Below are positions 2,932 through 31,487 of a DNA stretch of 62,358 nt, piece after piece. Made by a program: the position numbers and the translations under genes. Source of the stretch: an uncultured Bacteroidales bacterium (GTDB lineage: Bacteria > Bacteroidota > Bacteroidia > Bacteroidales > ML635J-15); assembly GCA_964448235.1 (NCBI GenBank), contig CAYUWD010000001.1:1-62358 (forward strand). Reading direction: 5' to 3'. The notes under the pieces were generated by a model. That model was not told the origin of the DNA. It saw only the letters and a program-made list of their open reading frames with translations, and did no database searches. Within the stretch, counting starts at the first letter, position 1, and each line of letters begins with the position of its first letter.

Positions 2932-2935
2932 AATC

Positions 2936-3331: not shown

Positions 3332-3342
3332 AATATAATTTT

Positions 3343-5643: not shown

Positions 5644-5654
5644 TTTGTTTTTGT

Positions 5655-7082: not shown

Positions 7083-7097
7083 GATTTCTTGTTTAAA

Positions 7098-9140: not shown

Positions 9141-9151
9141 GATAAAGTATT

Positions 9152-10174: not shown

Positions 10175-10193
10175 GTTATTTTGATTATTATGA

Positions 10194-10697: not shown

Positions 10698-10752
10698 AGT
10701 TTATTTATTTTACTTAATAATCAATATTTTAATAAACATTAGTTATATATGC

Positions 10753-13038: not shown

Positions 13039-13042
13039 AATC

Positions 13043-14593
13043 TTACTGTTGTAAATTATAAATTTGGGTTATTTCTGATTGAGAGAGAGCACGATTATAT
13101 GTTCTGATATTATCCATCTTTCCATTGTAGGCAGGCATATTATTAAAAGTTTGATCAGCAGGATCATCACCTATATAAGTATTATTATATGTTTGCCATT
13201 TAAAAGTCGTGCTACTTTTTGTTTCATTTAAAACTGCATCGAAATAGTATTTTGCAGAACTTCCATCAAACGTAATTGTAAGCATATGCCATTGATTATC
13301 AAGATTGTTACTTATAGGATTAGTAGATTCCCAATAATTACTACTACTAACATATTGATAAAGTTTAGATGAAGAGTTAATATAAATTTTGCAATAACTA
13401 ACACTTGTAGCATATAGTACTTGGTTTGAGTTTACCGTTTTTAACCAAATATTAAGAGACCAGTTGCTTGCTGGTGGAATAATTGTGTTGGAAACATTGA
13501 TATAAGATGATCCATTAAAAGATGCACAAAATCCAATGTCATTAGGAATATCATTTGAAAATTCTACTCCCACGTTAACACCATTAAAATTACCTGTCCA
13601 GTCATTAATATTTTGGTTATCAAAAGTATAATATGCAACAAGTCCATTTGTGACCACAACAGAACTAGAAGAACTGGTTGTTAATGTTATTTGATTACTA
13701 TACCCTGTTCCAATTGAATTTGTAGCATAGGCTCTTACATAATAAACCTGATCAGGTTCTAAAGCTGTTAAGTTACTTACAAATTGTCCGGCTGATGTTG
13801 TACCACCTAATGTTGTCTTGTTATCCGATGTTGTCGGATTAGAACTTATACTCCAACAATGCCCTCGTTCAATAACTGTAGAATTGCCAATAGAGGTTAT
13901 ACTTCCTACAATATCAGCAGAGGTCTGAGTAATATTAGTTGGCTGATTACATGTTACAGAAGGAACATTATCAGCAGCAACTTCTACATTAACTGTTATT
14001 GTTTCATTTCCACCATTAGAAGTAATTGAAAACACCTGACTGTATTGCCCTGATCCCATTTGATTTCTGTCAATTGTAATCTCAATTGCATCTGTTTCGG
14101 TTGTAGTTGACCCAGAAATTGGATTTATGCTTAACCATGCAACATTCTCTGATATTTCCCAATCCAAAGAATTTGAACCAACATTGGTTATTTCTATTGG
14201 TAATACAGTATATGTTGTTCCAAAATCTAAACTTATCATATTTACTTCCAAAATTGGAACTATTGGGTCTAATGCAACATCTCCTTTTCTTACTTGACCT
14301 CCTAAAACAGTTACTGCTTTGCTATTATCACCATATCCTGTCTTACTCACATTTATAGTATAATCTCCTTCTAGCAAATCTGCAAATTGATATTTTCCAT
14401 CACTACCAGTAGTTGCAGAAGAATTTGCAGGTGTTATTGTTACATTTGCCCCCTCAATTGTTTGTGATGTTTGTGAGTCTGTTATAATTCCTTCAATTGT
14501 CCCTTCATTCTCTGATTGATTATCACATGCATTTAAGAAACTTAAAATTGATATGATCAATATTGTCAACCAATAAAATATTTTATTTTTCAT
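13043..14593 (-). CDS. Lipoprotein: carboxypeptidase-regulatory-like + BACON-like + 1 FN3-like repeat + LamG/ConA-like tip
   Basis: Lipobox NAC; GLVAYYTFD...WHMLTIT...GKMDNIRTYNRALSQSEI LamG signature. Confidence 0.85.
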   Translation of the reverse strand: MKNKIFYWLTILIISILSFLNACDNQSENEGTIEGIITDSQTSQTIEGANVTITPANSSATTGSDGKYQFADLLEGDYTINVSKTGYGDNSKAVTVLGGQVRKGDVALDPIVPILEVNMISLDFGTTYTVLPIEITNVGSNSLDWEISENVAWLSINPISGSTTTETDAIEITIDRNQMGSGQYSQVFSITSNGGNETITVNVEVAADNVPSVTCNQPTNITQTSADIVGSITSIGNSTVIERGHCWSISSNPTTSDNKTTLGGTTSAGQFVSNLTALEPDQVYYVRAYATNSIGTGYSNQITLTTSSSSSVVVTNGLVAYYTFDNQNINDWTGNFNGVNVGVEFSNDIPNDIGFCASFNGSSYINVSNTIIPPASNWSLNIWLKTVNSNQVLYATSVSYCKIYINSSSKLYQYVSSSNYWESTNPISNNLDNQWHMLTITFDGSSAKYYFDAVLNETKSSTTFKWQTYNNTYIGDDPADQTFNNMPAYNGKMDNIRTYNRALSQSEITQIYNLQQ

Positions 14594-14600
14594 TATTATA

Positions 14601-15218
14601 TTATTTAACTATCGAAACTGACACTGTTGAATTACCTCCGTTTGATATTATTGAAATTATTTGTGAATGAGAACCAGACTCCAAAGATGATCGGTCAACA
14701 GTTACCATTACATTACTTGTTTGCGAAGTTGTTATTCCACTCAATGGGTTAATACTTATCCACTCAGCATTTTCAGAAATGCTCCACTCCAAACTACCTT
14801 CTCCCGAATTAGTAATTGCAATTGGCAGTGTTGTCAAATTATTACCAAAGTCCAGGCTTGAAACAGAAAGATTAATAATTGGAATAATTGGTTGCAAAAT
14901 AACATCCCCCGAATTTGTTTGTCCGGCAATCACAGTAACACTTTTTGTATTTGTTGTATAACCATCCTTCTGGACTTCTATAGTGTAGTCTTTTGGATCA
15001 AGATTTTTAAAATCATACTTTCCATCTACTCCTGTTGTTGCAGAAGAATTTAAAGGGCTTAATGTTACATTTGCCCCTTGAATTGGTTCATTAGTCTCAG
15101 CATCTACAACAATTCCATCAATATCTCCTACCACTGGAATATCTATTGGGTCACATCCAAAACACCAAAATAACATCGTAGATAAAATGGCTAAAATTAC
15201 TTTCTTCTTTGTCATCAT
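14601..15218 (-). CDS. Lipoprotein with only the carboxypeptidase-regulatory-like + BACON-like base
   Basis: Lipobox FGC; GANVTLSP...TTGVDGKYDF; SLDFG...LPI.ITN.G...LEW, shared with the two downstream genes. Confidence 0.85.
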   Translation of the reverse strand: MMTKKKVILAILSTMLFWCFGCDPIDIPVVGDIDGIVVDAETNEPIQGANVTLSPLNSSATTGVDGKYDFKNLDPKDYTIEVQKDGYTTNTKSVTVIAGQTNSGDVILQPIIPIINLSVSSLDFGNNLTTLPIAITNSGEGSLEWSISENAEWISINPLSGITTSQTSNVMVTVDRSSLESGSHSQIISIISNGGNSTVSVSIVK

Positions 15219-15220
15219 TA

Positions 15221-16117
15221 TTAAAATTTATAAGTTAATCCAAAGTTTAATATTTTGTTATCATCATAATATGCGTAGAAGTTTGTGTCAGAATTACGTA
15301 TTAAGCCTGCATATTTTTTTGCTCCTCTTGAGGTAGATGCATCAATAATGTTATATATGTATATAGCAGCAAAACCTGCTATACAAAAATAACTACCATT
15401 TCTCCAATTATCAGCCCTGTCAATGTATTGTGTTCTAACATAAATGTTGCTATTCTGTTGAGCTAATCTAAGATTCGATTTATACTGACTATAAGTAACT
15501 ACTGTTCCTATTGCAAATAATCCAGCACTACTAAGAAAACCAATACCTTTATTTCTTTCCTTTTTATAAAATTGTCCCCATCCTGGAACAACTGCTGATC
15601 TCCATACACCACTCATTCCATATCCTTGTTTTATTTCCTTTGGAGATGCTCCGTTCTTTGGGATTTTCATAAGTACCCAATATTGATACTCAATTTTATC
15701 ATTTGTTAAAACTTTTTGCCAATAATCTTCCTCTTTCTGTAGCCCTCTTATCACAATTTCTTCTCCACTACTATTTATGACTTGAATATAATCTTCATTA
15801 TAAGAATACTTCTCTTCACCACTTAAATCTATATCAACATTTTCTTCCTTTGTATATGTTCTTTCAACCTGAATTGTTGTATTATCATTAAATGATATTT
15901 GCGAGAGAACATTTCCAATTGCAGATTCTTGTGCAGATTCTAATGAAGTAGTACTCGAACCAATGCCAGTATAATACTTGTACGAATCTCCAGTTGGGGA
16001 TTCTTCAATCCAGTCAGGTTTACTATTGCTTGATTGATCTATAATATCTTGTGAAGAAACTATTTCGTAACAAAATAATGTAAAAACAAGAAAAATTAAT
16101 TTTAGTTCTATTTTCAT
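15221..16117 (-). CDS. LPP20-like domain protein with a DUF5683-like membrane C-terminus
   Basis: KPDWI...YYTGIG...AQESA LPP20-like; SAVVPGWGQFY plus hydrophobic segments. Confidence 0.7.
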   Translation of the reverse strand: MKIELKLIFLVFTLFCYEIVSSQDIIDQSSNSKPDWIEESPTGDSYKYYTGIGSSTTSLESAQESAIGNVLSQISFNDNTTIQVERTYTKEENVDIDLSGEEKYSYNEDYIQVINSSGEEIVIRGLQKEEDYWQKVLTNDKIEYQYWVLMKIPKNGASPKEIKQGYGMSGVWRSAVVPGWGQFYKKERNKGIGFLSSAGLFAIGTVVTYSQYKSNLRLAQQNSNIYVRTQYIDRADNWRNGSYFCIAGFAAIYIYNIIDASTSRGAKKYAGLIRNSDTNFYAYYDDNKILNFGLTYKF

Positions 16118-17007: not shown

Positions 17008-17742
17008 CTACATCTCGGCTAGATTCTTTGCCAAACGTGTAGAAACAGGTATTAAGAATTCATTTAAATTGCATTTTAATACGCAAATTCTGTTTTTTCG
17101 ATTATATTCTGTAATATATTTCTTATTTACAAGATAAGATTTATGTACACGAATAAAGTTACGCTCATCCAGATCATTTGTGAGATCTTTAAGTGTTTTA
17201 CTTACAACTCTTTTTTCTTTATTTGTTAGCATTAGCTCAGTGTAATTACCGTCTCCATTAGCAAAAGCAATATCGTCGCGATTTAGGAATTCAAACCCAT
17301 TCGCAGTGTTGATCTTTAATTTTGTATCAGTTTGTAATAAGTCAAGCAATTGAGAATAGTCATGCGGTTTTGGAGAGTCCTTTTTAGCAAGATATTTATT
17401 TATTGTCTCCTGCAATTCTTGCTTATCAACCGGCTTTAATAGATAGTCAAATGCGGAATATTTTATGGCTTTTATTGCAAATTCATCGTAAGCTGTTAGA
17501 AAAACAATATCAAAAGAATTAACTCCAAGATTTTTGAGCTTGTCTAATACATCAAAACCGGTTTGTCCCGGCATTTTAATATCAAGAAAAACCAGATCGG
17601 GACTATTTTTTACCAAATAGTCTATGGCTTCGTCAGGATTGGTTGTTGCAAATTCAATTTTTACATCGTCGAACTTTTGCAACATTGTACTAATATTAGT
17701 AATTGCATGTTTCTCGTCGTCTATTATTACTGTTTTTATCAT
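17008..17742 (-). CDS. LytTR-family response regulator
   Basis: Receiver VIIDDE...VFLDIKMP...FLTAYD...LLKP; LytTR FIRVHKSYLVN. Confidence 0.95.
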   Translation of the reverse strand: MIKTVIIDDEKHAITNISTMLQKFDDVKIEFATTNPDEAIDYLVKNSPDLVFLDIKMPGQTGFDVLDKLKNLGVNSFDIVFLTAYDEFAIKAIKYSAFDYLLKPVDKQELQETINKYLAKKDSPKPHDYSQLLDLLQTDTKLKINTANGFEFLNRDDIAFANGDGNYTELMLTNKEKRVVSKTLKDLTNDLDERNFIRVHKSYLVNKKYITEYNRKNRICVLKCNLNEFLIPVSTRLAKNLAEM

Positions 17743-17791
17743 AGTCGTTTATTGTTATTGTTTGATAACCTTCGTTCTTAAAATCTGTTTT

Positions 17792-17908
17792 TTGTCATAA
17801 TCTTTGCTTACAGTTGTAGCAAAGATATACGCCAAAAACGACATCGCTTGGTTTTGTAATCCCCGGACTATGTCCGGGGTTACAAACATTAAACCCCTAC
17901 GGGGTTTT
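17792..17908. repeat. Three-hairpin REP-like dispersed element, copy 1
   Basis: TCTTTGC..GCAAAGA, CCCCGGAC-TAT-GTCCGGGG and AAACCCC-TAC-GGGGTTT hairpins; homologous to 38864-38991. Confidence 0.8.
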
Positions 17909-17942
17909 AAAGGTATTTTAACAAATACTTTTTCCATATAAG

Positions 17943-20843
17943 TTAGATAATGTATTTATAATCAACAGGGATTTTTAAAATTACAAGTGTCCCTTTTGCT
18001 TCATTATTTTCATAAAGGTCGATGATCTCAAACGATGCTTTGTTTTTATTAGATTGATTTGTAATATTAAAGAAATTTGACATTGCTCCTAGTCCAATCC
18101 CTGTCGATTTTGTATGGATTTTACTTGCAGCTTTTCTTCCTATTCCACTATCCTGTATCTCAATATTCAAATAGCTATCTTTATTTTTTATTCTAATCGT
18201 AACTTCTCCACCTTCAGGTTTGTTTTCTATACCGTGTTTGACAGCATTTTCAACAAATACCTGAATACACATTTTAGGAATCAAAATATCTGTATTAATA
18301 TCTTTGGCTAAATATATTGAAAAATCAATTCGTTCTTCAAACCTAAGTTTTTGAAGTTCTAAATAATCTTCTACTACACTAATTTCTTCAGCAAGACTAC
18401 GAACAATTGTATCTTTATTGCTTAAAGAGCTCCGAAGCAAGCGTGTAACTTTTACATAATAATCATAGGCTTTTTCGTTATTATTTAATTGGACTTCTGT
18501 TCCAATTGCCGAAATAGCATTAAATACAAAATGAGGGTCAAGTTGTGCATTTACTGTATTCATCTGCATTGATACTAACATTTTCTCAACCTTCTGTTTT
18601 TCTTTTTCTTTTTTCCTTTTACGATTCAAATAGAGATAGGTAAAGAGAATAACAATAAAAACAGATAAAATAATTATTATAATTAAAAACCAAACTGTTT
18701 GCCAAAAAGCCGGTACAATATGAATTTTAATTACAGCAGGTTTTTTTGTCCAGTTTCCAAACTCATCGCAAGCAATTACTTCAAATGTATAATGTCCGGG
18801 AGAAAGGTTTGTAAACATTACCTCACCCGTATTTATTTCATTCCACTCATTATTGTAACCCTGAAGTCTATATTTATATTTTACTCTTTCAGGACATTCA
18901 TAATCAACAGCATGAAAATTTATTATTATATTATTGTTATCCCATGTTAAGTGATAAATACTGTCCTGATTGATTGGGAATGTACATTTTTCTTCCCAAT
19001 GAAGGTCTTTTCCCGAAGCCGACAAAGAGTAAATATACACAGGTGGAGGCAAAGTGTCAATCTTTAGTTTCTCTGGCATAAATTTAACAACACTTTCTGA
19101 TGTAGGAATCCACACATTTCCTTTTGAGTCAACAAAGGTTCCGTTTTGTCCGCATTCCTTACCTATAAAACCATTATAGCGGTCAAAGAAGTACATACTG
19201 TTTTTACTCCCGGACATATATTTTTCAATGTCAACATAAAGTATTCCGGTTGTATTACCTGCAACTATGTGCGTATCTTTATAATTATTGATAAATGTAA
19301 ATGCCCCTTCATAAACTTTAGTTATTGTGCTATAATCATATATAAACAAGCCTGTTTTATTCCCAAGCCACATATTACCGTTCACATCCCGCCTGCAACT
19401 CACAAACGGGGTATTGTACAAAACATGTTCAGATTCTAAATCAGAAAGAGTGTCACCATCATACAGAAAGATTTTTGCGTTTGTACAAAACCATAATTGT
19501 CCGTATTTATCTTGTTCTATATCCAGTACGTTGTGTCCTTCAGTTTGGATATTTTTAATTATTTTATTTTTTTCGGTATTATATAAATAAATGCCATTGT
19601 TTGTGCCAAAATAAATAATATTTCTAAGACTGTCTTCATAAACACAAAAAGGTGTAAAGTAAATCATTGATATAAATTCCTGCGAACTTTCATTACCAAT
19701 AAATGATCCATGTGACATTGGTATTATCCACTGCCCGTTATTTCGGCAATACCCGTCCATATAAAAAAGTGATGGTAAATCTTCAGGTAAGCCTTTTATT
19801 TTTAAATTTACTTTTTCCAGCTTATTGTTACCTCTTATCTTATATATTTTTCCTGCATATGATGCAAATACAATATCATTTTCCGGAGTTTCAAATATTG
19901 ACCATACGTATTTGGGCATCTCGTCTTTTTCGGTATAATTTTCAAATGCAGTGGAGTTTAATACATATAAACCGTTTTCTGTTGCAAAAAACATACTATT
20001 GTTGTATTCAACAATATCATTAATCTGTACGTCAGGGATTGAATTAGCATCAAGCAAATTGATTTCTTCATCAAACATAGCCCACGTATCTTGATTAGTT
20101 TCAATTACATATTTATATCCATCAAGCGTAAATAAAAATGAGTAGAGATCACTAGTTGTCTCATGTATTTTTGTAGCAATGTTTTTCGAATAATCAAACT
20201 TTATTATGCAGAAGTTATCATTATCTTTAATAAAATAATAAGCAGTGTTTGCTTTATTATGATCAATAAATACGTAATAATTGCTTTTGATAATTTGTTC
20301 AATATTTCCATTCTGATAAGCATACAAACTGTTATACAGACTCAAATAACAAGCACTATCAGAGATATATTTAAAATCGGCAATATTACATGTGTCAGAC
20401 ATTGCGAATAAAGTAGTGAGATTCGTATTTGAATACTTATAAACTTTGCTTTTTGTTGCAATAATAAAATCATCAGAATCGTTTATTTTTCTGACCCTTT
20501 TAATTTTTTCTTCACCGGAATTGTATATTTCTTCAAATCCGTTAGAAATATTTTTTAAAATTGATTCTCCGGTATAATAATAAAGTGTATCATTAATTTC
20601 AAAAATTCCCCTAACATATTGATCGTTTTGGTTCTGTTCTTTAAAAGATACAAAATTTTTGCCGTCAAACCTGCATATCCCACCTTTTGTCCCAAGCCAC
20701 AGAAAGCCATAATGATCAACATAAAGATCCATTACCTGGTTTTGTGGCAAGCCTTCAAAAATTGTGTATTGTCTATAGGAGTAGTGCTGGGCAAATACTA
20801 TTGCGGATAGGAAAACAAAAAATATAGAAAGACTTCTTTTCAT
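17943..20843 (-). CDS. LytS-type sensor histidine kinase with periplasmic beta-propeller and Y_Y_Y domains (966 aa)
   Basis: ATG 20843 preferred over TTG 20864. GLPQNQV..DHYGFLWLGT propeller; YKYRLQG..YTFEVIA Y_Y_Y; TM; AQLDPHFVFNA His_kinase; VENAVKHG, DSGIG. Confidence 0.93.
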   Translation of the reverse strand: MKRSLSIFFVFLSAIVFAQHYSYRQYTIFEGLPQNQVMDLYVDHYGFLWLGTKGGICRFDGKNFVSFKEQNQNDQYVRGIFEINDTLYYYTGESILKNISNGFEEIYNSGEEKIKRVRKINDSDDFIIATKSKVYKYSNTNLTTLFAMSDTCNIADFKYISDSACYLSLYNSLYAYQNGNIEQIIKSNYYVFIDHNKANTAYYFIKDNDNFCIIKFDYSKNIATKIHETTSDLYSFLFTLDGYKYVIETNQDTWAMFDEEINLLDANSIPDVQINDIVEYNNSMFFATENGLYVLNSTAFENYTEKDEMPKYVWSIFETPENDIVFASYAGKIYKIRGNNKLEKVNLKIKGLPEDLPSLFYMDGYCRNNGQWIIPMSHGSFIGNESSQEFISMIYFTPFCVYEDSLRNIIYFGTNNGIYLYNTEKNKIIKNIQTEGHNVLDIEQDKYGQLWFCTNAKIFLYDGDTLSDLESEHVLYNTPFVSCRRDVNGNMWLGNKTGLFIYDYSTITKVYEGAFTFINNYKDTHIVAGNTTGILYVDIEKYMSGSKNSMYFFDRYNGFIGKECGQNGTFVDSKGNVWIPTSESVVKFMPEKLKIDTLPPPVYIYSLSASGKDLHWEEKCTFPINQDSIYHLTWDNNNIIINFHAVDYECPERVKYKYRLQGYNNEWNEINTGEVMFTNLSPGHYTFEVIACDEFGNWTKKPAVIKIHIVPAFWQTVWFLIIIIILSVFIVILFTYLYLNRKRKKEKEKQKVEKMLVSMQMNTVNAQLDPHFVFNAISAIGTEVQLNNNEKAYDYYVKVTRLLRSSLSNKDTIVRSLAEEISVVEDYLELQKLRFEERIDFSIYLAKDINTDILIPKMCIQVFVENAVKHGIENKPEGGEVTIRIKNKDSYLNIEIQDSGIGRKAASKIHTKSTGIGLGAMSNFFNITNQSNKNKASFEIIDLYENNEAKGTLVILKIPVDYKYII

Positions 20844-20874
20844 TAACTTTTTTGAACAATGCAAAATTTCGATA

Positions 20875-21302: not shown

Positions 21303-22757
21303 CTAAAACTTCTGCTCTTCTATATCAAAAATCTTCATTCTATCGAATTCCAGCCAATATACAATAGCTAGCTCTCTAATTCTAAGCCAGTAATCAGGAG
21401 TTAAATTTCCATACAGTTTTATAGCTTCTTTAACATCATTTTGGATTTGTTTACAATATTTATCTTTTAAACGAAGTTTTATTTTTTGATCCTTAAATTG
21501 AAAATCTGCTTCAGGTCTTTTAAATTCGTTGTCAGAAATTTCAATTAATCCATGACCAATTGTAGCTCCTACACTGACTTGCAAACCGTCATTCATACAA
21601 CTTGTAGGTGGATTTGTGCCAGCATATGAAGTAATCATTATATCATCAACTCCGATATTAAAATATTCTCTTACTCTGATACCCATTTTAACCCCAATAA
21701 TTGCATAAATCCCTAAATGTCCGTGTAATTCATTCGTTAAAACTCCAGCACGCCATTCTGTTCGTCCATATTTTTCAATAACATCCTGCATGTTAACAGC
21801 AACATCTTCAGCATATAACTCCTTATCTATTGGAAAAACAGAAAATACTTTACACTCCTTTGTTGTCTTACTGTTTAAAATCTCATAAAAACAATTATTT
21901 ATTTCTTTAACATTCTCTGTTTTTGGTAGAACTAAACTAACATTTCCATCATTATCATTCTGATTAAAATATTGAGGATATAACAAATAAACAGGTATCA
22001 AATCGTCCCAAAACTTCAATTTCGATTTTGCTATGATATCACTATAGGCACCATTTACATGTGTATTATAAATTTTATTTACATACTTATTTACTTTCTT
22101 AGCAACAAGACTAAGATAATAATCCCCAAGTATAAATTCTTCATTATCATTATTACTAACTACAATTTTTTCAATTTTCGATTTGCTAAATTCTTCAGCT
22201 GCCAGAATATCCAATTCATAATTAAAGCCACTTCCGGCAAGATAATCATCACAATACCATATAATTTTCTCTATTTGAGATGCTAAATCATTATCTTTTA
22301 AGACTTCAACAATATTTGTCAATGGCCCAAGACATATAAGTAAAACTTTTTCTTCTTCTCCAATAATAGAATTACGAATTAAGTCTTTTGCTCCTTGCTT
22401 TTCAGGTATTTTGATTTCTTCTGAACTTCCCCAAGAAACTGAAAGATTTAATTCGTGACAGGCAGTTTTTTTTATTGAATTATTTTCTCCATAAGCCACA
22501 GCAATCCCCTGATGTCCAAAATCATCAAGCAAAGAGGTAACTTTAATATATCCTTCACGAGGCGTTAAGACTCCATCTGATGTTGTAATTGCCAAAACTT
22601 CAAATTCCGGCGAAGCTAATATCATGCACAATGTTCTTAGGTCATCGGCTGCACAATCTGTATCAACAATTGTGTGATATCTGGCTTTCCCTGAATGTGC
22701 ATAAGTTGAAAGTGAAAATAGTGTTATTAAAAAAATTGGAAAAAGTATTCTTTTCAT
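21303..22757 (-). CDS. Secreted inosine/uridine-preferring nucleoside hydrolase fused to an FmdE-like domain
   Basis: Signal peptide; DTDCAADD (DxDxxxDD) and GPLTN motifs; C-terminal LHGHLG...SCMNDGLQVSVGATIGHG. Confidence 0.85.
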   Translation of the reverse strand: MKRILFPIFLITLFSLSTYAHSGKARYHTIVDTDCAADDLRTLCMILASPEFEVLAITTSDGVLTPREGYIKVTSLLDDFGHQGIAVAYGENNSIKKTACHELNLSVSWGSSEEIKIPEKQGAKDLIRNSIIGEEEKVLLICLGPLTNIVEVLKDNDLASQIEKIIWYCDDYLAGSGFNYELDILAAEEFSKSKIEKIVVSNNDNEEFILGDYYLSLVAKKVNKYVNKIYNTHVNGAYSDIIAKSKLKFWDDLIPVYLLYPQYFNQNDNDGNVSLVLPKTENVKEINNCFYEILNSKTTKECKVFSVFPIDKELYAEDVAVNMQDVIEKYGRTEWRAGVLTNELHGHLGIYAIIGVKMGIRVREYFNIGVDDIMITSYAGTNPPTSCMNDGLQVSVGATIGHGLIEISDNEFKRPEADFQFKDQKIKLRLKDKYCKQIQNDVKEAIKLYGNLTPDYWLRIRELAIVYWLEFDRMKIFDIEEQKF

Positions 22758-24625
22758 TATTTAAGCTTATTAAAATATAAATTAATTCCTGCAAAAACAT
22801 TTATCCCCGGCATTGGGTACTGGTAATTTATTTCATATTCCGAATTTAAAAGGTTATTTCCTGCAATATATATGTCAATATAATTATTATGCTTATAATT
22901 TACTCTTGCATTAACTATCAAATAATTTTCCTTTATAATATTATTTTCAGCAACTGATGTATAAAGTCCATGTATATACTGAGTATTTGCGCTGAAAGAG
23001 AATTTATTCCATTTATATGTTGCACTAAAATATCCTTGATGTTCAGGAGATGCAATTATAGGTTTTTCCATGTATAAGTAACTATAATTTAAATGGAATT
23101 GCATATTACTATTTAACCTGTAATTGGTTGCAAACTCTATACCACTATTTGTAAATTCCCCAGTATTCATATGCTTAGGAACTCCACCTTCGAAAACAGT
23201 TTTAATCATATTTTCTCCTGTAATATAAAAACAACTGATTTCAAAATCAACTTTATTCTTAACATTTTGAAGATAACTAAACTCATAATTCATTAACTCT
23301 TCGGGTAACAAATTGGCATTTGCTGGTGCCCAAAGATACAATTCTCGAATTGTCGGACTACGAAACCCCTTTGATGCAATACCTTTAAATGTCGTATTTG
23401 CGTTCAAATTGTATGATAAACCGGCTTGTGGCACCCACTGATTACCATAAACACTATGATACTCAGAACGAATACCTGCATTCAATATTAGTTTTTGTTT
23501 TATATTTTGCTGACTCATAACATAAACTCCGGTTTCAGTAAGTGTTGTATCTCCAAATATCATCCCAGCTCCCATCATAGCTTCAGTATTTTCAGCAATT
23601 CCTCCAAAAGTTTTATAATCAACACCAATAGTTGTAGAATTACCTTTAAAAAATTTAAAAGATTCATATAACATTAGTCCTGAATTAATATCATTCGAAT
23701 GAAAACCATCATACAGATAATGCTCTCCAAAATTATGAAATACTTTAACTGCACCAGACATTTTATCATAATTATTTTCAATTGTAAAAGATGCTTTACC
23801 ACGTAAAATATCAATCCAATGTCCATAGTTTTGAAATGTAGTATCAATTGTGTTTATTGGACCGGGATCACATGTATAAAATTTTGCAACATTAAAGTCA
23901 ATTGTAGATTTTACATTTTCATTTAACCTATACAATATTTTAGCGTATGCATTATCTATTTTAAATTTTGAATTTTCTCTATGTCCATCAGTTTGATCAT
24001 GATTATATGAGATAAAAGCAGAAAATTTATTCTTTTTATATCCTGCACTTGCCATATACTTTTGAGTATTAAAAGAGCCATAAGATACTTTCCCTTTTAA
24101 AGATAATCCATCTTGCTTTTGTTTCTTAGTAATGATATTTATCACTCCACCCATAGCACCAGAACCATAAAGAATTGATGCCGGACCTTTTATAATTTCA
24201 ACTCTGTCAACATCAGACGAAACATAAGAATCCGGTAATGGGTGCCCCATAATCCCCATATATTGAGGATGACCATCTAGTAACATTAAAACCTGTGTAT
24301 TTGGACTACCTCCAATTCCACGAATACTAATCTGTCCGGCGGATCCATCAGCAACACCAAAACCGGTAACACCTCTTTCAGTTACAAATACACCCGGCAC
24401 ACGCTCACTAATAACCGGCAACAAAGCAGACTCATTTGTATTTTCTATTTCTTTTTCGTTAATAATTGAAATTGTCATCGGAATATTATTCCTGATTACT
24501 TCTGTTTTTGTTCCAGATATTACAACCTCTTTTAACCTAATAGTATCTTTAGTAATTTCTTGTCCATATAGAACAAAGCTAAATCCAAAAATTACGAATA
24601 ATGCTAATAAACTTTGTTTAATCAT
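22757..24625 (-). CDS. TonB-dependent receptor (BtuB-like size)
   Basis: Plug motif RVEIIKGPASILYGSGAMGGVINIITK; NLLN..Y...YPMPGINVFAGI C-terminus; TAATG stop/start overlap with the downstream gene. Confidence 0.93.
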   Translation of the reverse strand: MIKQSLLALFVIFGFSFVLYGQEITKDTIRLKEVVISGTKTEVIRNNIPMTISIINEKEIENTNESALLPVISERVPGVFVTERGVTGFGVADGSAGQISIRGIGGSPNTQVLMLLDGHPQYMGIMGHPLPDSYVSSDVDRVEIIKGPASILYGSGAMGGVINIITKKQKQDGLSLKGKVSYGSFNTQKYMASAGYKKNKFSAFISYNHDQTDGHRENSKFKIDNAYAKILYRLNENVKSTIDFNVAKFYTCDPGPINTIDTTFQNYGHWIDILRGKASFTIENNYDKMSGAVKVFHNFGEHYLYDGFHSNDINSGLMLYESFKFFKGNSTTIGVDYKTFGGIAENTEAMMGAGMIFGDTTLTETGVYVMSQQNIKQKLILNAGIRSEYHSVYGNQWVPQAGLSYNLNANTTFKGIASKGFRSPTIRELYLWAPANANLLPEELMNYEFSYLQNVKNKVDFEISCFYITGENMIKTVFEGGVPKHMNTGEFTNSGIEFATNYRLNSNMQFHLNYSYLYMEKPIIASPEHQGYFSATYKWNKFSFSANTQYIHGLYTSVAENNIIKENYLIVNARVNYKHNNYIDIYIAGNNLLNSEYEINYQYPMPGINVFAGINLYFNKLK

Positions 24626-24646
24626 AATACATAAATATTTATCTCA

Positions 24647-24654
24647 CAAAGATA
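24647..24654 (-). promoter_or_regulatory. -7 promoter box (TATCTTTG) for the TonB receptor
   Basis: TAnnTTTG match 22 bp upstream of the ATG. Confidence 0.6.
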
Positions 24655-24692
24655 AAACAAACAAATTACATATTACGCTAATTGTCTGATTT

Positions 24693-24720
24693 TCAAGTTG
24701 TTAAACTTTTAACAACTTGA
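24693..24720. promoter_or_regulatory. Perfect 13-2-13 palindrome, candidate operator
   Basis: TCAAGTTGTTAAA-CT-TTTAACAACTTGA. Confidence 0.55.
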
Positions 24721-24875
24721 TAAACTACTGATATTTAGAGAATAATAATATCTAAAATATTTTCTATTCTATATATATGCTCCCAAAACAATTATTATAT
24801 AGATATGATTAGACATAATAAACCAATCACCCGAATAAACACTTTTATGATATTTATTTACAATTTCAAAATATC

Positions 24876-26492
24876 TTAATTCACAATCAATCGTTTTGTA
24901 TTAACTTTTGATTTATCCTGAACCTTAACAAAATAACATCCTGCATTTATTTCACCTAATGAAAGATTAATCAAATTACTTGTAGATTCTTTGGTAAAGA
25001 CTAAACGCCCACGTAAGTCATAAATCTCAATTATTCTATTTTGTTCATTATTAAATTCCAGTATTACCAAATTATCAGCAGGTTGTGGATACAGTTTAAA
25101 ATCATTAGCATTATTTTCAGTAATATTTGAAACATTTACATCATGAGCATAAGCTCTGATAGTAAGGTCTCTTTCTCTATCAACGACATCGTTACCATAA
25201 GCAAACCATGATGCTCCTGTACTACTGATCCAACAAACTCCTGCCTCAATCTGGGGATCTGCATAACCATCAGAAAACTTTTCAAATGGAATAGGGTAAT
25301 TGTATCCGGGAGTATTATACTCAACTTTTACGTAAAAGTCTTCACCCTCAGCAAGAAGAATTGGGCTAGGAATCTCATAAGAATAATATCCTGGATAGTC
25401 AACAGTAAAAGGCCCTAAAGTTGTTAAAAGATTTGAAAGAGTATTATCTACTTTGTCATCGTATACCTCAAAACTTATAGTTGCTCCTTCAGTATTGACA
25501 TAAGTACCAAGACCATTAATTTCATTTTCGCCACCTGTTACAAATTTTACAAGGCCATAACCAGTTTCTGCACTATATCCGGTATTGCTTATCCAACCAA
25601 GCTCATTGTACATATAAATTGTATCTCCCGGGATTACTTCTTTATATCCCGGAAAAGCAGCTACACTGGTTAGGTATTTTGTATCATTATATGATATATA
25701 GAAATAACCATTATCTCCCCAATCATCATCCCATGAGTTTCGTACAATCCATGCACCTGTACCACCAGCAGTTACTAAATTATCATCCCAGCCACATAAT
25801 AAAACAGCATGGTCTGTATCTTCAGCACCATCATAATAATATGTATTATCCGATGAATTATAATATACACCATCATAATACATATTAGTATATATTGCTC
25901 CATAATCAAGAACAGCTTGTTTTACAACTGCTATATCTGATGGAAATATTTTAAACTGATTAAAACAAAAATCTGTTGCACGATATTCTGTACAAGTTGC
26001 ATTTTCATCTGCATCGTAAGGTAATACTGTTTCATCAATTGGGCCGTCCATTCTTGAGAGATATGCAAATGCTTTTTTAGGACTACCACCACTACAAGTA
26101 AGATTTTCGCCCAACTCAAATCCATGACAAGTACGCATATTTTGCTCAGAAAAATCGTAAACTCCTTCTCCTGACTTTAACAAAAAACTTTCGAGTGACC
26201 CCATAGTCGTAAAAGTCCAGCATACACCACAAGCTGCCTGGTCTTTGACAGAAGTCACATATCCTTCTGAACGTAAATCATAAACAGGATCAAATTGAAC
26301 ACCCTTTACTAAATTATGTATATTTTGAAAATGTGGAGTAACATAAAACGGTATATCCCCACATACATCTTCGCCATTTAATTTCATTTGTTGCCACCTT
26401 AAAAACTCCGGGTTTACAGGTGCTTCAATATCCTGTGCAAAGTTTGAAGCCGCTAAAATAAGTGTAATAGTAATAATAAATAATCTTTTCAT
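24876..26492 (-). CDS. Papain-family (C1) cysteine peptidase + lectin-like domain + T9SS CTD (538 aa)
   Basis: VKDQAACGVCWTF, DHAVLLCGW and WIVRNSW catalytic motifs; LYPQPA CTD. ATG 26492 preferred over GTG 26540. Confidence 0.92.
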   Translation of the reverse strand: MKRLFIITITLILAASNFAQDIEAPVNPEFLRWQQMKLNGEDVCGDIPFYVTPHFQNIHNLVKGVQFDPVYDLRSEGYVTSVKDQAACGVCWTFTTMGSLESFLLKSGEGVYDFSEQNMRTCHGFELGENLTCSGGSPKKAFAYLSRMDGPIDETVLPYDADENATCTEYRATDFCFNQFKIFPSDIAVVKQAVLDYGAIYTNMYYDGVYYNSSDNTYYYDGAEDTDHAVLLCGWDDNLVTAGGTGAWIVRNSWDDDWGDNGYFYISYNDTKYLTSVAAFPGYKEVIPGDTIYMYNELGWISNTGYSAETGYGLVKFVTGGENEINGLGTYVNTEGATISFEVYDDKVDNTLSNLLTTLGPFTVDYPGYYSYEIPSPILLAEGEDFYVKVEYNTPGYNYPIPFEKFSDGYADPQIEAGVCWISSTGASWFAYGNDVVDRERDLTIRAYAHDVNVSNITENNANDFKLYPQPADNLVILEFNNEQNRIIEIYDLRGRLVFTKESTSNLINLSLGEINAGCYFVKVQDKSKVNTKRLIVN

Positions 26493-26568
26493 TTTTTCAT
26501 GTTTTCTAAAAACAAAAATAAGCAAAATAGATAAAACCACTTTGCTTATTTCAATTTATCTTTAAGGT

Positions 26569-28014
26569 TTATTCTACAATAGATACTGTATATGATTTAT
26601 CTCCAATCATCAAATGATACATTCCTGAATCGATATCATTTAATTCAATGATACTATTTGAATTATTTAATTCCCCTTGATTAACAATTTGACCTAATTG
26701 ATTTAATACCTTATATTCAATAGTTTCATTTTGCATATCACCAAGATTAACATTTAGATAATCAGATGTAGGATTTGGATAAATCTCAATATTAGTATCA
26801 TGATTAAAATCTTTAATTCCAATTGTTGGGTTTTCATAAACTTGTACAATACCGTCAGCTTCGGCATTACCCATAGCAGAAGGAGCAGATACTGCCATTA
26901 CAGCTCCATCTTCGGATAAAGCAACTGCTGTTCCCATTTTATCTTCAGGATTAAATCCGGTAATTCCACTACCTATAAGTGTCCAGTTACTACCAGAATA
27001 CTGATACATCATCACATGACCGGCATTAGAATAAGAAATATTGCTACCAGGAGCACCAATTGCAATAATATTTCCGGATGCACAAATTGCAACACCTGTT
27101 CCTGTTAAATCAGTTGCGTCAGTACTCTGAATATTTGATCCTTTTTGCACCCATACACTTCCTGTATAATTGTAAACTGCTACCATTGCATCTTCAGCAT
27201 CACCACAAATAATAGTTTCTCCATCTTCATTTAGTGCTATTGTATTTCCAAAAGTACCTGTACCATCAGCAATATTAAGACCCATTAAATCCCATTCCTC
27301 AGAAGATGAATTATATTCAAAAACCTTAACATAAGCACCTCCCGGAGCACCTGAAGCAATAATAGTACCTGCATCATTAATAGCTACTGACATTCCTAAT
27401 TGATCAAGAATATTATCACCCTGAACAGTATTACCTTTTTGTTCCCATGTGCTAGCTGAATATTCGTATACCTTAGCTGTTCCACCATAATTATCGCCGG
27501 GATCACCAGGAGTACCAATAATCACTGTATTACCATCAGCACTAATATCAACAGATTGTCCATATGTTGTGTATGCAACTGTACCTGTAATGGAATTACC
27601 TTTCTGAACCCACACACCTCCAGAATATTCATAAACAATAGCTTGTCCGTTACTTGATGCTACAGAACTCTCTCCTGGTATTCCTACAATTAAAGTATTA
27701 CCATCATCACTTAGAGCTACTGAGGTACCAAATGCATCATCATCAGCAACACCATCGATATCTGAACCTTTTTGTACCCAATTTCCACCACTTAATTCAT
27801 AAACTCTTACATGTCCTGGTGAATCTGGACTTATAGCCCCTTTATTAAACTTAGAACCAATTGCTATAACAGTGGCATCTGAGTTTAAACTTATTGCTTG
27901 CCCTGAATAATCAAAAGCAGCTTCACCAATAATATCTGCTCCAATTGGAGTCCACTGAGCAATACATAACTGGTATAATACTATACCTAATAACAATAAA
28001 ATTACTTTTTTCAT
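26569..28014 (-). CDS. T9SS-secreted FG-GAP-like beta-propeller protein
   Basis: About 7 repeats WxQxG..I.G....D..G.SV.L..DG..xAIG; IYPNPT CTD. Confidence 0.85.
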   Translation of the reverse strand: MKKVILLLLGIVLYQLCIAQWTPIGADIIGEAAFDYSGQAISLNSDATVIAIGSKFNKGAISPDSPGHVRVYELSGGNWVQKGSDIDGVADDDAFGTSVALSDDGNTLIVGIPGESSVASSNGQAIVYEYSGGVWVQKGNSITGTVAYTTYGQSVDISADGNTVIIGTPGDPGDNYGGTAKVYEYSASTWEQKGNTVQGDNILDQLGMSVAINDAGTIIASGAPGGAYVKVFEYNSSSEEWDLMGLNIADGTGTFGNTIALNEDGETIICGDAEDAMVAVYNYTGSVWVQKGSNIQSTDATDLTGTGVAICASGNIIAIGAPGSNISYSNAGHVMMYQYSGSNWTLIGSGITGFNPEDKMGTAVALSEDGAVMAVSAPSAMGNAEADGIVQVYENPTIGIKDFNHDTNIEIYPNPTSDYLNVNLGDMQNETIEYKVLNQLGQIVNQGELNNSNSIIELNDIDSGMYHLMIGDKSYTVSIVE

Positions 28015-28020
28015 TTTGTT

Positions 28021-29487
28021 TTAGTTTTTAATTATTTTAGTCGAATAGACTGTTACACCTGCATCAATCTTCAAAAGATATAATCCTGAATCCAAAGACA
28101 TAATATCTATTTGACCATTTTGAAAGATCTGCTCTTTATTTATTAATTTTCCATCTACAGAATATATCTCAACCATTATGTTACTATCTGATTCAATGTT
28201 TAAAACATCGCTAACTACTGTAGGATAAACTTTAATCCTGACATTTTCAAAATTCTCAAATATATTACTGGATATATTAGCATTATAATAAACCTCAATT
28301 ACACCACTTTCAGAAACTGCATTTTCGTCTCTACCAGGGATTCCTATTGCAACTGTACTACCAATTGCATCTAAAGAAACATTAAAACCCATATTATCAT
28401 CATCAACAGTTTCTCCAAAGATTGAATATCCGGGAAATTCTTCATTTCCATAAGGTCTCCACAGACCACTATAAAGTTTCAACACATCTGCCAAACCTCG
28501 TTCCTCTGTTCCTCCTGCTACTGCATAACCTGGAGATCCTACAGCAAGTAAATCTCCTACTGCATTCAAGCTAACTGAAGAACCTGCCAAGCTATTTTCA
28601 CTATTACCATAGAAGGTATTACCTAATTGTTGCCAGTCATCTGTTACAAATTCGTAAACTTTAACATAACCTATGTCGTCAATTATACCTTCTGAATCTT
28701 TACCGTCCGGAGCTCCCGCAGCAATTATAGTTCCATCACTGTTTATAGACACATCCGAACCGAAATGACTGTTACTACCATCACCGGTTAATACACTGCC
28801 TTTAAGAGACCATGTCCCTTCATCGTATTCATATACACTAACCGTTCCCGAAGGACTATGATATTTAGACCCTATAACGACAGTATTTCCATCTGTACTT
28901 ATGTCGGTTCCCCACCCCATCATTTGTCCTGATTCACCATAAATAATATCACCTTTGAGTTCCCATGAGCTTCCATTCAATTGATAAATGCTCAAGGATC
29001 CAGTTCCGGAATTATCATTAGTAGCAGTAATTGCGATTACATTTCCGGTATCATTTAAAGAAAATGAATATCCGAACATTACACTACCAGTCTCTCCGAT
29101 AATGGTATCTCCAAGCAAAACCCAGGCATCTGCATTTCTTTCATAAACACATACATATTCTCTGCTGCTCCATGCTCCGCCACTCATGGCAACAATAGAA
29201 CCGTCATAATTTATGGAAACCTCTCCATTTAGATTAGCACTACTCTCGTCAGTAAAGCCATCTCCTATTTGCACCCAGTTATCAGATACATTTTTCTCAT
29301 AAACTAAAGCAAGATTAGAGGTTGAACCAACAATAACCGTTGAGCCATCGCCACTTATCTCAACATATTTTAAATACTGATACTCAGTGTTTTCGCCAGG
29401 AATTGCATCTCCAACTTGATTCCATTGAGCGAATAAACTAGAAAAAATCAATAAAATTAACCCTGTAAAAACTATTCTCTTTTTCAT
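28021..29487 (-). CDS. T9SS-secreted FG-GAP-like beta-propeller protein (paralogue of 26569-28014)
   Basis: Same repeat pattern; VYPTVV..LDSGLYLLKI CTD. Confidence 0.85.
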   Translation of the reverse strand: MKKRIVFTGLILLIFSSLFAQWNQVGDAIPGENTEYQYLKYVEISGDGSTVIVGSTSNLALVYEKNVSDNWVQIGDGFTDESSANLNGEVSINYDGSIVAMSGGAWSSREYVCVYERNADAWVLLGDTIIGETGSVMFGYSFSLNDTGNVIAITATNDNSGTGSLSIYQLNGSSWELKGDIIYGESGQMMGWGTDISTDGNTVVIGSKYHSPSGTVSVYEYDEGTWSLKGSVLTGDGSNSHFGSDVSINSDGTIIAAGAPDGKDSEGIIDDIGYVKVYEFVTDDWQQLGNTFYGNSENSLAGSSVSLNAVGDLLAVGSPGYAVAGGTEERGLADVLKLYSGLWRPYGNEEFPGYSIFGETVDDDNMGFNVSLDAIGSTVAIGIPGRDENAVSESGVIEVYYNANISSNIFENFENVRIKVYPTVVSDVLNIESDSNIMVEIYSVDGKLINKEQIFQNGQIDIMSLDSGLYLLKIDAGVTVYSTKIIKN

Positions 29488-29507
29488 AATCTATTTATTA
29501 TTTAATT

Positions 29508-31487
29508 TTAATTACTTGCATCATCAATTTTTTTACTTGCAGCTTCGTACCTCTCGGTAAAACCTGGAATATCATGACAATTATAAAGATTTTCCCATTC
29601 TTCACTATATTTGCCAAATTGTTCCATTAACTCTGTCAATTGATTAATTGCATCCATATCATAAGGATTTTCCTGAACTCTTTTAATAATTTGAGGATAT
29701 TTATCAGCAAACTCTTCATATCTAATAAGAAAATCTTCACAATCTGAATTTGCAGAAATGGAATTTTCATCTGTAATATTACCATCTGAATTATTTGTTT
29801 GTGTTTCAGAACCTGTATAATTTCCTGTATAATTTGAATTTAATCCGGAAAATGGTCTATCTCTATCCTGAACTAAAATATTATCAATTTTAGAAATTGG
29901 GAAAGAAGTACCAGAACCGATACATTTATTCTCAATAATCACAGATCCTTCTTCTTTACCATCCTGAGTTAATTTAAGTTTAAAAGTAATAACACTTACC
30001 TCGTCGTTGGTATCAGGATGTGACTCATCTAAACAAAATACAGAAAAAATAACATCTCCAAAACCTTCACCTTCGGGCACGTTAATGCTAATATCAGCTG
30101 TTCCATTACCAATGTCCTCAATTTTTACATAATCTGGTTTTATTACTGTATAAAATGAAATCTTATCGCACTCAGAATCTAATGCGGAGATACTTCCCCT
30201 CCATGATTCTCCTGGAGCAATATTTGTTTTACCAGTGTATCCTGAAATATATGGTGGGTAATTGCAATTCACATTTTGTTCATTATTATGTACTTTTAAT
30301 AAATATAAATTATTATTATAATCAGATGCATAAAAAACAAATACATCATCTTTGCTATTAACTAAAATATCCGTATAAGGAGTTGCTTCATCTCCCTCAC
30401 CTTCATATATTTTTTGCCATTTTTGTTCACAGCTACACGAACGTTCATAAACTTGCATATGAGGTCCGCCAAATGCAATATAATACTTCCCTTTACTGTC
30501 AATAACAATTGCAGGAGCTCTTTTTGAAGCAGTTTCACCAAAACTATGGTCTATCATCCACTCTCCATTACTACATCCACTTTTATCCAACACATTAATT
30601 CCATGAAACCAATTTAAGCCTTCCTCAACCCAATCAAAATAATCAAAAAATACAAACACCGGATTTCCTGCAGGATTTGTAGTAATAGATGTCTGATGTT
30701 TCCAGGCATTCATCTCGCCAGGTTGAGAGAATTTTTCAAAAGCCTCAATATCCCATTCACCACCAGAGATTTTCTTAGATGCAAAATGCAAATCTCTATC
30801 ACCACCAATAGTAATATAAACCATATCTCCTGCTGTTGCAATGGATGGATCTGCTGCATAAGAAAACTCATTTGCTATTCCTGGCATTATCATATCCATT
30901 TGCCATTTATCCGAATTTGCAGCTTTATACCAATACACCGCAGACATCCAATGTTGAACACCTGTTTGATCCGTCACACTAGCACAAGCATATAAATGCA
31001 AACCACCATTTTCATCAATGCACATATCAGTGTATTCATCGTGAATTCTAAATTTCATGAAATCTGATGATTCATTAGCGTTTTTAAAAGTCCATTCTTC
31101 GTTACAATTACTTATATGTTTTGTATCCCAATAAATATTTTCCTTGTAACGGCCAAAAATAGCAATGCTAATATTATCGTTATTATCTATAGCAATATTA
31201 GGATAAGTCGACTCCTCCTGAGTTTCTTTATAATGATTATCAAAATAAGTTAAATGTTGATATTTCCAGGATCCAGATCTGTTAGTTCCAAAATAAACAT
31301 GATTGTCAAATCCTACAAAGACGATATAAAGATTGTCCTTACTATCAACAGCAGACTTAACATGCTGTATTCGAGCACTTGAGTTTTCATCAGTAAAAAT
31401 TACACTTTTTTGAATAGTATATTCTTGAGCAATCATACTTAATAAAACACCCAGAAAAAACGTTAAAAATAATGTTATCCTTTTCAT
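29508..31487 (-). CDS. Secreted propeller-like + Ig-like protein with a helical DUF6591-like C-terminus
   Basis: Signal peptide; repeated IAIDxxxNI/L blades; C-terminal CEDFLIRYEEFADKY helices. Confidence 0.65.
   Translation of the reverse strand: MKRITLFLTFFLGVLLSMIAQEYTIQKSVIFTDENSSARIQHVKSAVDSKDNLYIVFVGFDNHVYFGTNRSGSWKYQHLTYFDNHYKETQEESTYPNIAIDNNDNISIAIFGRYKENIYWDTKHISNCNEEWTFKNANESSDFMKFRIHDEYTDMCIDENGGLHLYACASVTDQTGVQHWMSAVYWYKAANSDKWQMDMIMPGIANEFSYAADPSIATAGDMVYITIGGDRDLHFASKKISGGEWDIEAFEKFSQPGEMNAWKHQTSITTNPAGNPVFVFFDYFDWVEEGLNWFHGINVLDKSGCSNGEWMIDHSFGETASKRAPAIVIDSKGKYYIAFGGPHMQVYERSCSCEQKWQKIYEGEGDEATPYTDILVNSKDDVFVFYASDYNNNLYLLKVHNNEQNVNCNYPPYISGYTGKTNIAPGESWRGSISALDSECDKISFYTVIKPDYVKIEDIGNGTADISINVPEGEGFGDVIFSVFCLDESHPDTNDEVSVITFKLKLTQDGKEEGSVIIENKCIGSGTSFPISKIDNILVQDRDRPFSGLNSNYTGNYTGSETQTNNSDGNITDENSISANSDCEDFLIRYEEFADKYPQIIKRVQENPYDMDAINQLTELMEQFGKYSEEWENLYNCHDIPGFTERYEAASKKIDDASN

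Follow-up and report, generated by a model that had tools for sequence, protein, structure and literature searches.

A TonB-dependent receptor coupled to an exported nucleoside hydrolase-FmdE fusion protein: a probable nickel acquisition operon in Bacteroidales

Introduction

NikR-controlled, TonB-dependent uptake of nickel is known from Helicobacter and has been predicted in some proteobacteria (PMC11247825). In the periplasm, NikK and NikL have been proposed as extra parts of Nik(M)QO transporters, and NikA binds nickel (PMC545781, PMC2667541). The structures of stand-alone proteins of the FmdE family (PDB 2GLZ, 2GVI and 3D00) show a tetrahedral His-x-His-x-Cys...Cys site holding zinc or mixed zinc and nickel, the mixed occupancy being seen in one crystal and zinc predominating in the crystals, and the authors noted metal-ion transporters beside most FmdE-family genes (PMC2954224). 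Here we report a gene pair from a 62,358-nucleotide stretch of DNA of an uncultured Bacteroidales bacterium (contig CAYUWD010000001.1 of assembly GCA_964448235.1; this whole stretch is hereafter called the window), together with its domains, its conserved pairing, the nickel-regulon neighbourhoods of its relatives and its operator motifs. The pair encodes a TonB-dependent receptor (TBDR) and an exported protein in which a nucleoside-hydrolase-like (NH) domain is fused to an FmdE domain. The two genes probably form one operon, a module for TonB-dependent acquisition of nickel (or cobalt) with a new periplasmic metal-handling protein.

The Helicobacter pylori receptors FrpB4 and FecA3 and other NikR-controlled nickel TBDRs (PMC11247825), with which the locus is likened by description, are similar in their NikR regulon and in the supply of urease and [NiFe]-hydrogenase. 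In contrast to these, the receptor described here has a small barrel, about the size of BtuB, and comes from Bacteroidota and Aminicenantes; it is coupled translationally to a periplasmic NH-FmdE protein, a partner that was not found in the literature searched on those systems, and the operator in the window is of Rex type rather than NikR type. Like NikK, NikL and the nickel-binding NikA, the fusion would be a periplasmic holder of nickel ahead of an inner-membrane importer, and as in the NikK/NikL setting it is found in urease loci together with genes of CbiM(N)QO type; its fold, however, is unrelated, and it is coupled to an outer-membrane receptor instead of an ATP-binding cassette (ABC) or energy-coupling factor (ECF) transporter. 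With the stand-alone FmdE proteins, a family noted for metal-ion transporters as neighbours, it shares the alpha+beta core and the His-x-His ... Cys residues of a putative metal site. It differs from them in being exported, in its fusion to a hydrolase-like domain, in having no C-terminal zinc ribbon, and in having Gly for the third ligand Cys plus an invariant His402. The fold, the DxDxxxDD calcium site, the T-N and N motifs and Asp251 are held in common with the nucleoside N-ribohydrolases (RihA/YbeK, IU-NH and the Trp-type IAG-NH), whereas the fusion is exported, has Trp for the acid His, lacks the 5'-OH ligands and scores far below the equivalog cut-offs. The Bacteroides BtuB-BtuG(-BtuH) B12 loci (PMC10404256) are alike insofar as an Alistipes clade of the fusion is encoded last in a riboswitch operon with DUF4465, DUF5074 and a TBDR; a riboswitch and BtuG-like and BtuH-like genes are absent from the window locus, whose receptor belongs to a different TBDR lineage. 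Literature searches returned no published description of an FmdE-nucleoside hydrolase fusion or of its link to TonB or nickel. The new element is the dedicated, translationally coupled NH-FmdE periplasmic partner, NikR-controlled TonB-dependent nickel uptake being already known.

Results

The gene pair

The two genes and their domains are located as follows (positions are those of the window).
22757-24625, minus strand: TonB-dependent outer-membrane receptor gene, 622 amino acids, with signal peptide, plug and barrel
24143-24487, minus strand: receptor plug domain, residues 47-161 (Pfam)
22850-24010, minus strand: receptor barrel of 22-strand size, residues 206-592 (Pfam)
21303-22757, minus strand: gene of the exported two-domain fusion, 484 amino acids
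22698-22757, minus strand: predicted signal peptide of the fusion, residues 1-20 (sequence features)
21942-22670, minus strand: nucleoside-hydrolase-like domain, residues 30-272 (Pfam), with DTDxxxDD (22641-22664), T147-N148, N179 and W250-D251
21399-21728, minus strand: FmdE domain, residues 344-453 (Pfam), with H345-G-H347 (21717-21725), C387 and H402

Both open reading frames (ORFs) were recovered in a check of the window, and base 22757 is common to the two in a one-base TAATG overlap, identical to that of the receptor and fusion genes in the closest relatives (loci L085 and L087). The two-gene unit that had been described in a preliminary description of this DNA therefore stands, co-transcription of the pair is supported, and the positions that it gave for the two fusion motifs (D32-D39, DTDCAADD; H345-G-H347) were correct. 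Each domain assignment exceeds its curated Pfam cut-off: in the receptor, Plug scored 75.6 bits (cut-off 23.9) and TonB_dep_Rec_b-barrel 115.2 (cut-off 27); in the fusion, IU_nuc_hydro scored 70.1 bits (cut-off 34.2) and FmdE 47.7 (cut-off 22.9).

A conserved architecture and pairing

The fusion family comprises at least 1277 proteins, and both domains were present in all 120 fusion homologues among the matches listed. An exhaustive search (E<=1e-30) gave 256 clusters at 50% identity, nearly all of 470-510 amino acids and alignable over their full length at identities as low as about 30%; the architecture of the fusion is fixed. Contigs selected at one genome per species contained 342 relatives of the fusion. 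The 80 best loci came from Bacteroidales (Alistipes, Tannerella, Odoribacter, Parabacteroides and many metagenome-assembled genomes, MAGs), Aminicenantes and Acidobacteria. The survey of upstream genes covered 77 non-redundant loci that had sufficient upstream sequence. Adjacency of a TBDR was scored by profile searches on six-frame translations, as ORF clustering undercounts in high-GC loci with spurious antisense ORFs. The association with TBDRs, on which the preliminary description depended, recurs well beyond the window: a small TBDR lies directly upstream of the fusion on the same strand in 54 of the 77 loci and elsewhere in the locus in four, and is absent from 19. Neighbour-joining trees of the fusion and of the partner receptor have identical major groups, and the pair was therefore inherited as a unit.

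Nickel-regulon neighbourhoods

In several of the surveyed loci the gene for NikR lies directly upstream of the TBDR-fusion pair (L004, from Aminicenantes, L031, L059, L068, L078, L081 and L082); in L055 it lies divergently, and in L088 and L089 the gene that follows it encodes a plug only. The L059 product scored 157 bits against the 105-bit NikR cut-off. Boxes of the published NikR signal, GTGTTAC-N13/14-GTAACAC (PMC545781), were found just upstream of nikR, the TBDR gene or the fusion gene, with perfect copies in L004 and L088, and also where nikR is not adjacent (L001, L091, L010, L023, L027 and L030, the first two being stand-alone fusions). About 20 distinct NikR sites occur in 1.4 Mb, most of them at these promoters. 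Either nikR or a NikR operator is present in at least 16 loci of the family; the window itself has neither, its sole NikR match (11082-11108) being inside an ORF and none being upstream of the operon.

Two further contexts recur. Loci L002 and L007 have the order hypA-hypB-(His-rich membrane protein)-rex ... TBDR-fusion, with a [NiFe]-hydrogenase operon adjoining in L002, and Alistipes-type loci have the order ureD/ureF-ureG-urea transporter-cbiM(N)-cbiQ-cbiO-[MFS]-TBDR-fusion. The four independent recurring contexts (nikR, NikR boxes, hydrogenase maturation and urease) all concern nickel. The window pair groups with these loci. Its receptor has 68-69% identity with the TBDRs of L002 and L007, the hyp/NiFe-hydrogenase loci, and 46-54% with nikR-linked TBDRs, and both proteins branch within the hyp/hydrogenase plus nikR clade of the neighbour-joining trees.

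A metal or metal cofactor other than nickel (zinc, iron or a molybdenum/tungsten pterin) would be suggested by the name of the FmdE domain. A gene for an aldehyde:ferredoxin oxidoreductase, a family of tungsten enzymes, lies downstream in L004. The domain takes its name from operons for molybdenum formylmethanofuran dehydrogenase, and zinc is the main occupant of its site in crystals (PMC2954224). Against this, the recurring regulators and neighbours are nickel-specific (NikR, HypA/HypB and UreG/UreF/UreD), and neighbourhood clustering showed no recurrent context of Zur, Fur or ModE type; we regard another metal as very unlikely.

Two proteins of these neighbourhoods are described here in their own right. 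A His-rich DsbD_2-like membrane protein of 237 amino acids is usually encoded downstream of the fusion in nikR loci. Its homologues (about 235 amino acids; L059 11465-12178 and relatives, L002 2076-2774) contain a long His-rich loop, HKHSHLHSGGVVHEHVHTHSEDHDHVH, have a weak Pfam DsbD_2 call and a faint NCBIfam match to nickel/cobalt efflux transporters, and follow the fusion in nikR loci and hypB in hyp operons; this protein is a candidate nickel permease. Between nikR and the fusion, L088 (7312-8004) and L089 (2683-3375) have a 230-amino-acid gene with a Plug domain and no barrel, which overlaps the fusion start by 4 nucleotides (nt) and in L088 is preceded by a perfect NikR box, GTGTTAC-N13-GTAACAC (7270-7296). 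Its product represents a decayed receptor or else a plug protein that stands alone.

A Rex-type operator in the leader

The leader of the window operon contains two elements.
24690-24723, no strand assigned: palindromic operator, an inverted repeat with 16-nt arms that are 94% complementary
24647-24654, minus strand: candidate Bacteroidetes -7 promoter element TATCTTTG, of TAnnTTTG type, 22 nt before the ATG, read from sequence

The candidate -7 element, of the type of the Bacteroidetes consensus, is kept as TACTTTTG in L085 and L087; a scan for sigma-70 promoters found 27 against 26.7 expected. The core of the operator (24698-24715) lies 73 nt before the receptor ATG. Its gene-strand sequence, TTGTTAAAAGTTTAACAA, fits the Rex consensus TTGTTAANNNNTTAACAA (PMC8457756) without a mismatch, and the window has one such match where 0.13 would be expected. 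This 18-mer is invariant in L085 and L087 despite diverged flanks, and a Rex box with one mismatch is found upstream of the orthologous TBDR in L002, L007 and L008. No rex gene lies in the window, whereas L002, L007 and L031, which are related loci, each have one. In L002, Rex-type boxes with two mismatches or fewer stand before hypA, before both hydrogenase operons (FeFe and NiFe) and before the gene of the orthologous receptor. Based upon the conserved box, the placement of the pair in its clade and the same box in the hyp/hydrogenase context of L002, the window operon reads as part of a redox-controlled hydrogen/nickel regulon, in which a Rex-type redox repressor appears to set expression, as it would in close relatives for the operons of hydrogenase and hyp genes.

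The palindrome was also considered as an intrinsic terminator of the upstream gene and rejected, as it has no T-run, its loop is of 2 nt and a terminator scan was empty. No Rfam element was found in the window at gathering thresholds, and nothing relevant at E<=10 in 24500-25000.

Two related loci have several such boxes. In L002 there are five within 17 kb (at 579, 3895, 7698, 16632 and 16921), which precede hypA, an NADH-linked FeFe-hydrogenase operon, the TBDR gene, the NiFe-hydrogenase operon and one unknown gene, and its rex gene (2793-3458) is embedded in the operon of hypA and hypB. The arrangement resembles a compact Rex regulon that would serve the hydrogen metabolism of this Bacteroidales MAG. 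L031 has Rex-like boxes at 3656-3673, 9204-9221 and 9260-9277. Its nikR-TBDR-fusion-permease operon has a NikR-type box and a Rex-like palindrome ahead of nikR, which suggests combined nickel and redox control, and two further Rex-like boxes precede the divergent rex gene.

Export and metal site of the fusion

The fusion begins with MKRILFPIFLITLFSLSTYA followed by HSGK. With Ala at -1, Thr at -3 and no lipobox Cys, this is a predicted signal-peptidase-I signal, in agreement with the signal peptide assigned to the second protein in the preliminary description; because of these features the fusion is likely to be a soluble periplasmic protein. Cleavage is predicted after TYA, which would leave His21 as the mature N-terminus (HSGKARYH). 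Among 83 relatives the mature start is conserved as HSGKA+xH (H21 in 78, S22 in 82, K24 in 81 and H28 in 75), and an N-terminal histidine is a known type of nickel ligand. The structure predicted with AlphaFold2 from a 24-sequence alignment is a compact two-domain fold (mean pLDDT 87.1, pTM 0.87).

In the FmdE domain, residues H345, H347 and C387 align to the zinc ligands His16, His18 and Cys61 of 2GVI, and Cys20 corresponds to G349, a mapping that rests on a marginal sequence match to the PDB entry (E 0.37). These three residues and H402 are invariant in 84 of 84 sequences. His402, which lies in the next conserved loop, could replace the fourth ligand missing at the Gly349 position. With three of the four structural ligands invariant, the earlier proposal that this domain is a metal-binding module gains support from the alignment.

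The hydrolase-like domain

The N-terminal half of the predicted structure gave its best Foldseek matches to RihA/YbeK-type hydrolases (E 2e-13, target TM about 0.75). In a residue census of 84 sequences, the calcium-site residues D32, D34, D38, D39 and D251 are each kept in 83-84, and T147-N148 and N179 are likewise invariant. In a profile alignment to RihA/YbeK, the catalytic-acid His of RihA (the 'LHD' position) aligns with an invariant Trp250, the 5'-OH ligand Glu ('EFN') aligns with Gly177 (Gly in 77 of 84), and the GxGN loop expected to carry an Asn 5'-OH ligand is deleted, the last two assignments being alignment-dependent. The hydrolase motif that the preliminary description called intact is thus intact in its Asp calcium motif, T147-N148, N179 and D251, and altered in that the acid His has become Trp250 and the 5'-OH ligands are gone. 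A Trp at the acid-His position is a defining feature of the purine-specific IAG-type enzymes, and by analogy Trp250 may be compatible with catalysis. Insofar as the calcium/diol core is kept, Trp250 is present and the 5'-OH ligands are lost, the domain could bind a ribose-like cis-diol that carries an aromatic aglycone and whose 5' end is either free or substituted.

Ordinary nucleoside scavenging, in which the TBDR would import nucleosides and a periplasmic nucleosidase free base and ribose, is what a database label would suggest: the Pfam and NCBIfam matches are of RihA/RihC type, and public annotations label the family as pyrimidine-specific ribonucleoside hydrolase or nucleoside hydrolase. 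The NCBIfam RihA score, however, is 45.8 against a cut-off of 433, neither the acid His nor the 5'-OH ligands are kept, FmdE is obligatory across about 256 clusters, and in the surveyed loci it is nickel genes that recur nearby and not ribose or nucleoside catabolic genes. Scavenging is accordingly judged highly improbable, and about 250 sequence clusters under the hydrolase label are probably misannotated.

The conserved core permits a more specific proposal, in which the receptor would import a riboside-containing nickel or cobalt carrier, either a nucleoside-type 'nickelophore' or a nucleotide-bearing metallocofactor from other microbes, and the Trp-type domain would cleave its N-glycosidic bond in the periplasm, releasing the metal onto the His/His/Cys site of FmdE. 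We consider this rather unlikely. If true, it would couple TonB-dependent uptake to a catalytic release of the metal, and would account for the placement of one protein under NikR, Rex and B12-riboswitch control. The metal-nucleoside chelate that had been offered as one option for the substrate is compatible with the data.

Receptor identity and the cobamide question

The substrate favoured in the preliminary description was a nucleoside-containing cofactor (a cobamide lower ligand, or an NAD or flavin precursor), to be imported and processed in the periplasm. On this view the receptor would take up, for example, a cobamide, the hydrolase domain would process it and FmdE would be an accessory. 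Several observations speak for such a role. Among PDB chains, only Escherichia coli BtuB aligns with the window receptor over its full length, although weakly (E 1e-14), and the invariant catalytic core with lost 5'-OH ligands would fit a 5'-substituted riboside. Cobalamin-riboswitch operons that end in the fusion were found in eight Alistipes-type loci (L046, L052, L064, L067, L070, L072, L073 and L074), with riboswitch scores of 86-99 bits in the six scanned with Rfam and two more identified by nhmmer. These operons encode DUF4465 (BtuH-like) and DUF5074 (BtuG-like) proteins, L052 having only riboswitch, DUF4465 and fusion, and three of them (L070, L072 and L074) include a TBDR of 710 amino acids.

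On the other side, the riboswitch clade is a derived tip group of the fusion tree with urease-linked copies as its sisters, and its 710-amino-acid TBDRs have no BLAST match to the window receptor and are unrelated to the usual partner of 620-635 amino acids. The window receptor is far under the cut-offs of the BtuB equivalog models (125.2 bits against 599.7 for TIGR01779, 111.1 against 836 for NF007926), as are all partner receptors, at 125-140 bits against the B12-receptor model, with 127-139 bits for the orthologous ones. The window has no riboswitch and no match to the DUF4465 profile, the genes on either side of the pair are not of BtuG, BtuH or BtuFCD type, and the clade of the window pair is located in nickel contexts. 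In addition, the lower ligand of cobamides is alpha-linked, whereas nucleoside hydrolases act on beta-ribosides (textbook). Cofactor import is therefore unlikely, and at this locus the proposal gives way to nickel, the context of the orthologues; the cobamide link does exist, in the derived Alistipes clade with its unrelated receptor.

Specificity of metal transporters for nickel or cobalt has been assigned by NikR versus B12-element control (PMC2667541). The simplest reading of the riboswitch clade is that it reflects, by analogy, this same duality; that clade may nevertheless have a cobalt or corrinoid role. Because the candidate functional residues are identical there, the biochemical function of the fusion must also suit a cobalt/corrinoid setting.

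A proposed route for nickel

For the window copy we infer nickel as the substrate, a periplasmic location for the fusion, a metal site and a series of hand-over steps. The small receptor would bring Ni(II), free or chelated, through the outer membrane. The exported fusion would capture it in the periplasm, with FmdE holding the metal on His345, His347 and Cys387, possibly with His402, and the processed N-terminal His21 may join in binding. The hydrolase-like domain, with its calcium/cis-diol core and opened 5' pocket, would bind or cleave a riboside portion of the imported species or act as a scaffold. An inner-membrane permease would then take over the metal; in relatives this may be a CbiM(N)QO-type ECF transporter or the His-rich DsbD_2-like protein, and the window encodes no such permease. 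From there the metal would reach the machinery (HypAB or UreG) that supplies [NiFe]-hydrogenase or urease.

Several points weigh against this account. The 62-kb window has no nikR, hyp, urease, hydrogenase or nickel permease genes (profile searches found no nikR, hyp, ure, cbiM or DUF4465 gene in it), so that the nickel assignment of the window copy rests on orthology and the shared operator. The Rex assignment is itself a motif identity to a Clostridial consensus. About a quarter of the loci (the 19 of 77 noted above) have the fusion and no TBDR, and the neighbours of many TBDR-fusion pairs are uninformative. In one clade a cobalamin riboswitch controls the fusion alongside genes of B12-binding type, and all candidate functional residues are identical there. 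A simple metal-chaperone role leaves the strict conservation of a hydrolase-type active site unexplained, and the literature searches gave no experiment or paper tying the family to nickel.

Other genes of the window

Pfam annotation of 40 window ORFs gave surface or secreted proteins, regulators and housekeeping genes only, and the pair is flanked by genes for a C1 peptidase and a histidine kinase (Pfam). All sequencing-run matches to the window were marine-sediment DNA runs.
24876-31487, minus strand: series of exported proteins, several with C-terminal sorting domains of the type IX secretion system
24876-26540, minus strand: papain-family C1 peptidase bearing a lectin-like domain
26569-28014, minus strand: FG-GAP-repeat protein, with a similar-looking neighbour at 28021-29487 and a 659-amino-acid protein also in the run
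17008-20864, minus strand: Reg_prop/Y_Y_Y sensor histidine kinase (973 amino acids) and LytTR response regulator
16-16117, minus strand: long same-strand stretch of large surface-type proteins with Fib_succ_major, fn3, PKD, CarboxypepD_reg, BACON_2 and Laminin_G_3 domains
46088-47425, plus strand: 445-amino-acid protein whose sole match is a partial CobW/HypB/UreG G-domain (26.5 bits, residues 235-299), with no NCBIfam match

The two-component genes are downstream of the operon on the same strand, separated from the fusion gene by a 438-nt gap, and no link between them and the operon was found. A sensor family related to the window histidine kinase (clustering family f3) occurs near some homologous loci.

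Discussion

Urease and [NiFe]-hydrogenase are limited by nickel supply, and both activities have a central place in the nitrogen and hydrogen turnover of guts and of anoxic sediments. The passage of nickel over the outer membrane and through the periplasm of Bacteroidota is essentially undescribed, and the receptor-fusion family is a concrete candidate for such a route, together with its regulators. The long-orphaned FmdE domain would thereby gain a testable role in metal hand-over, and a riboside-type metal carrier is raised as a possibility.

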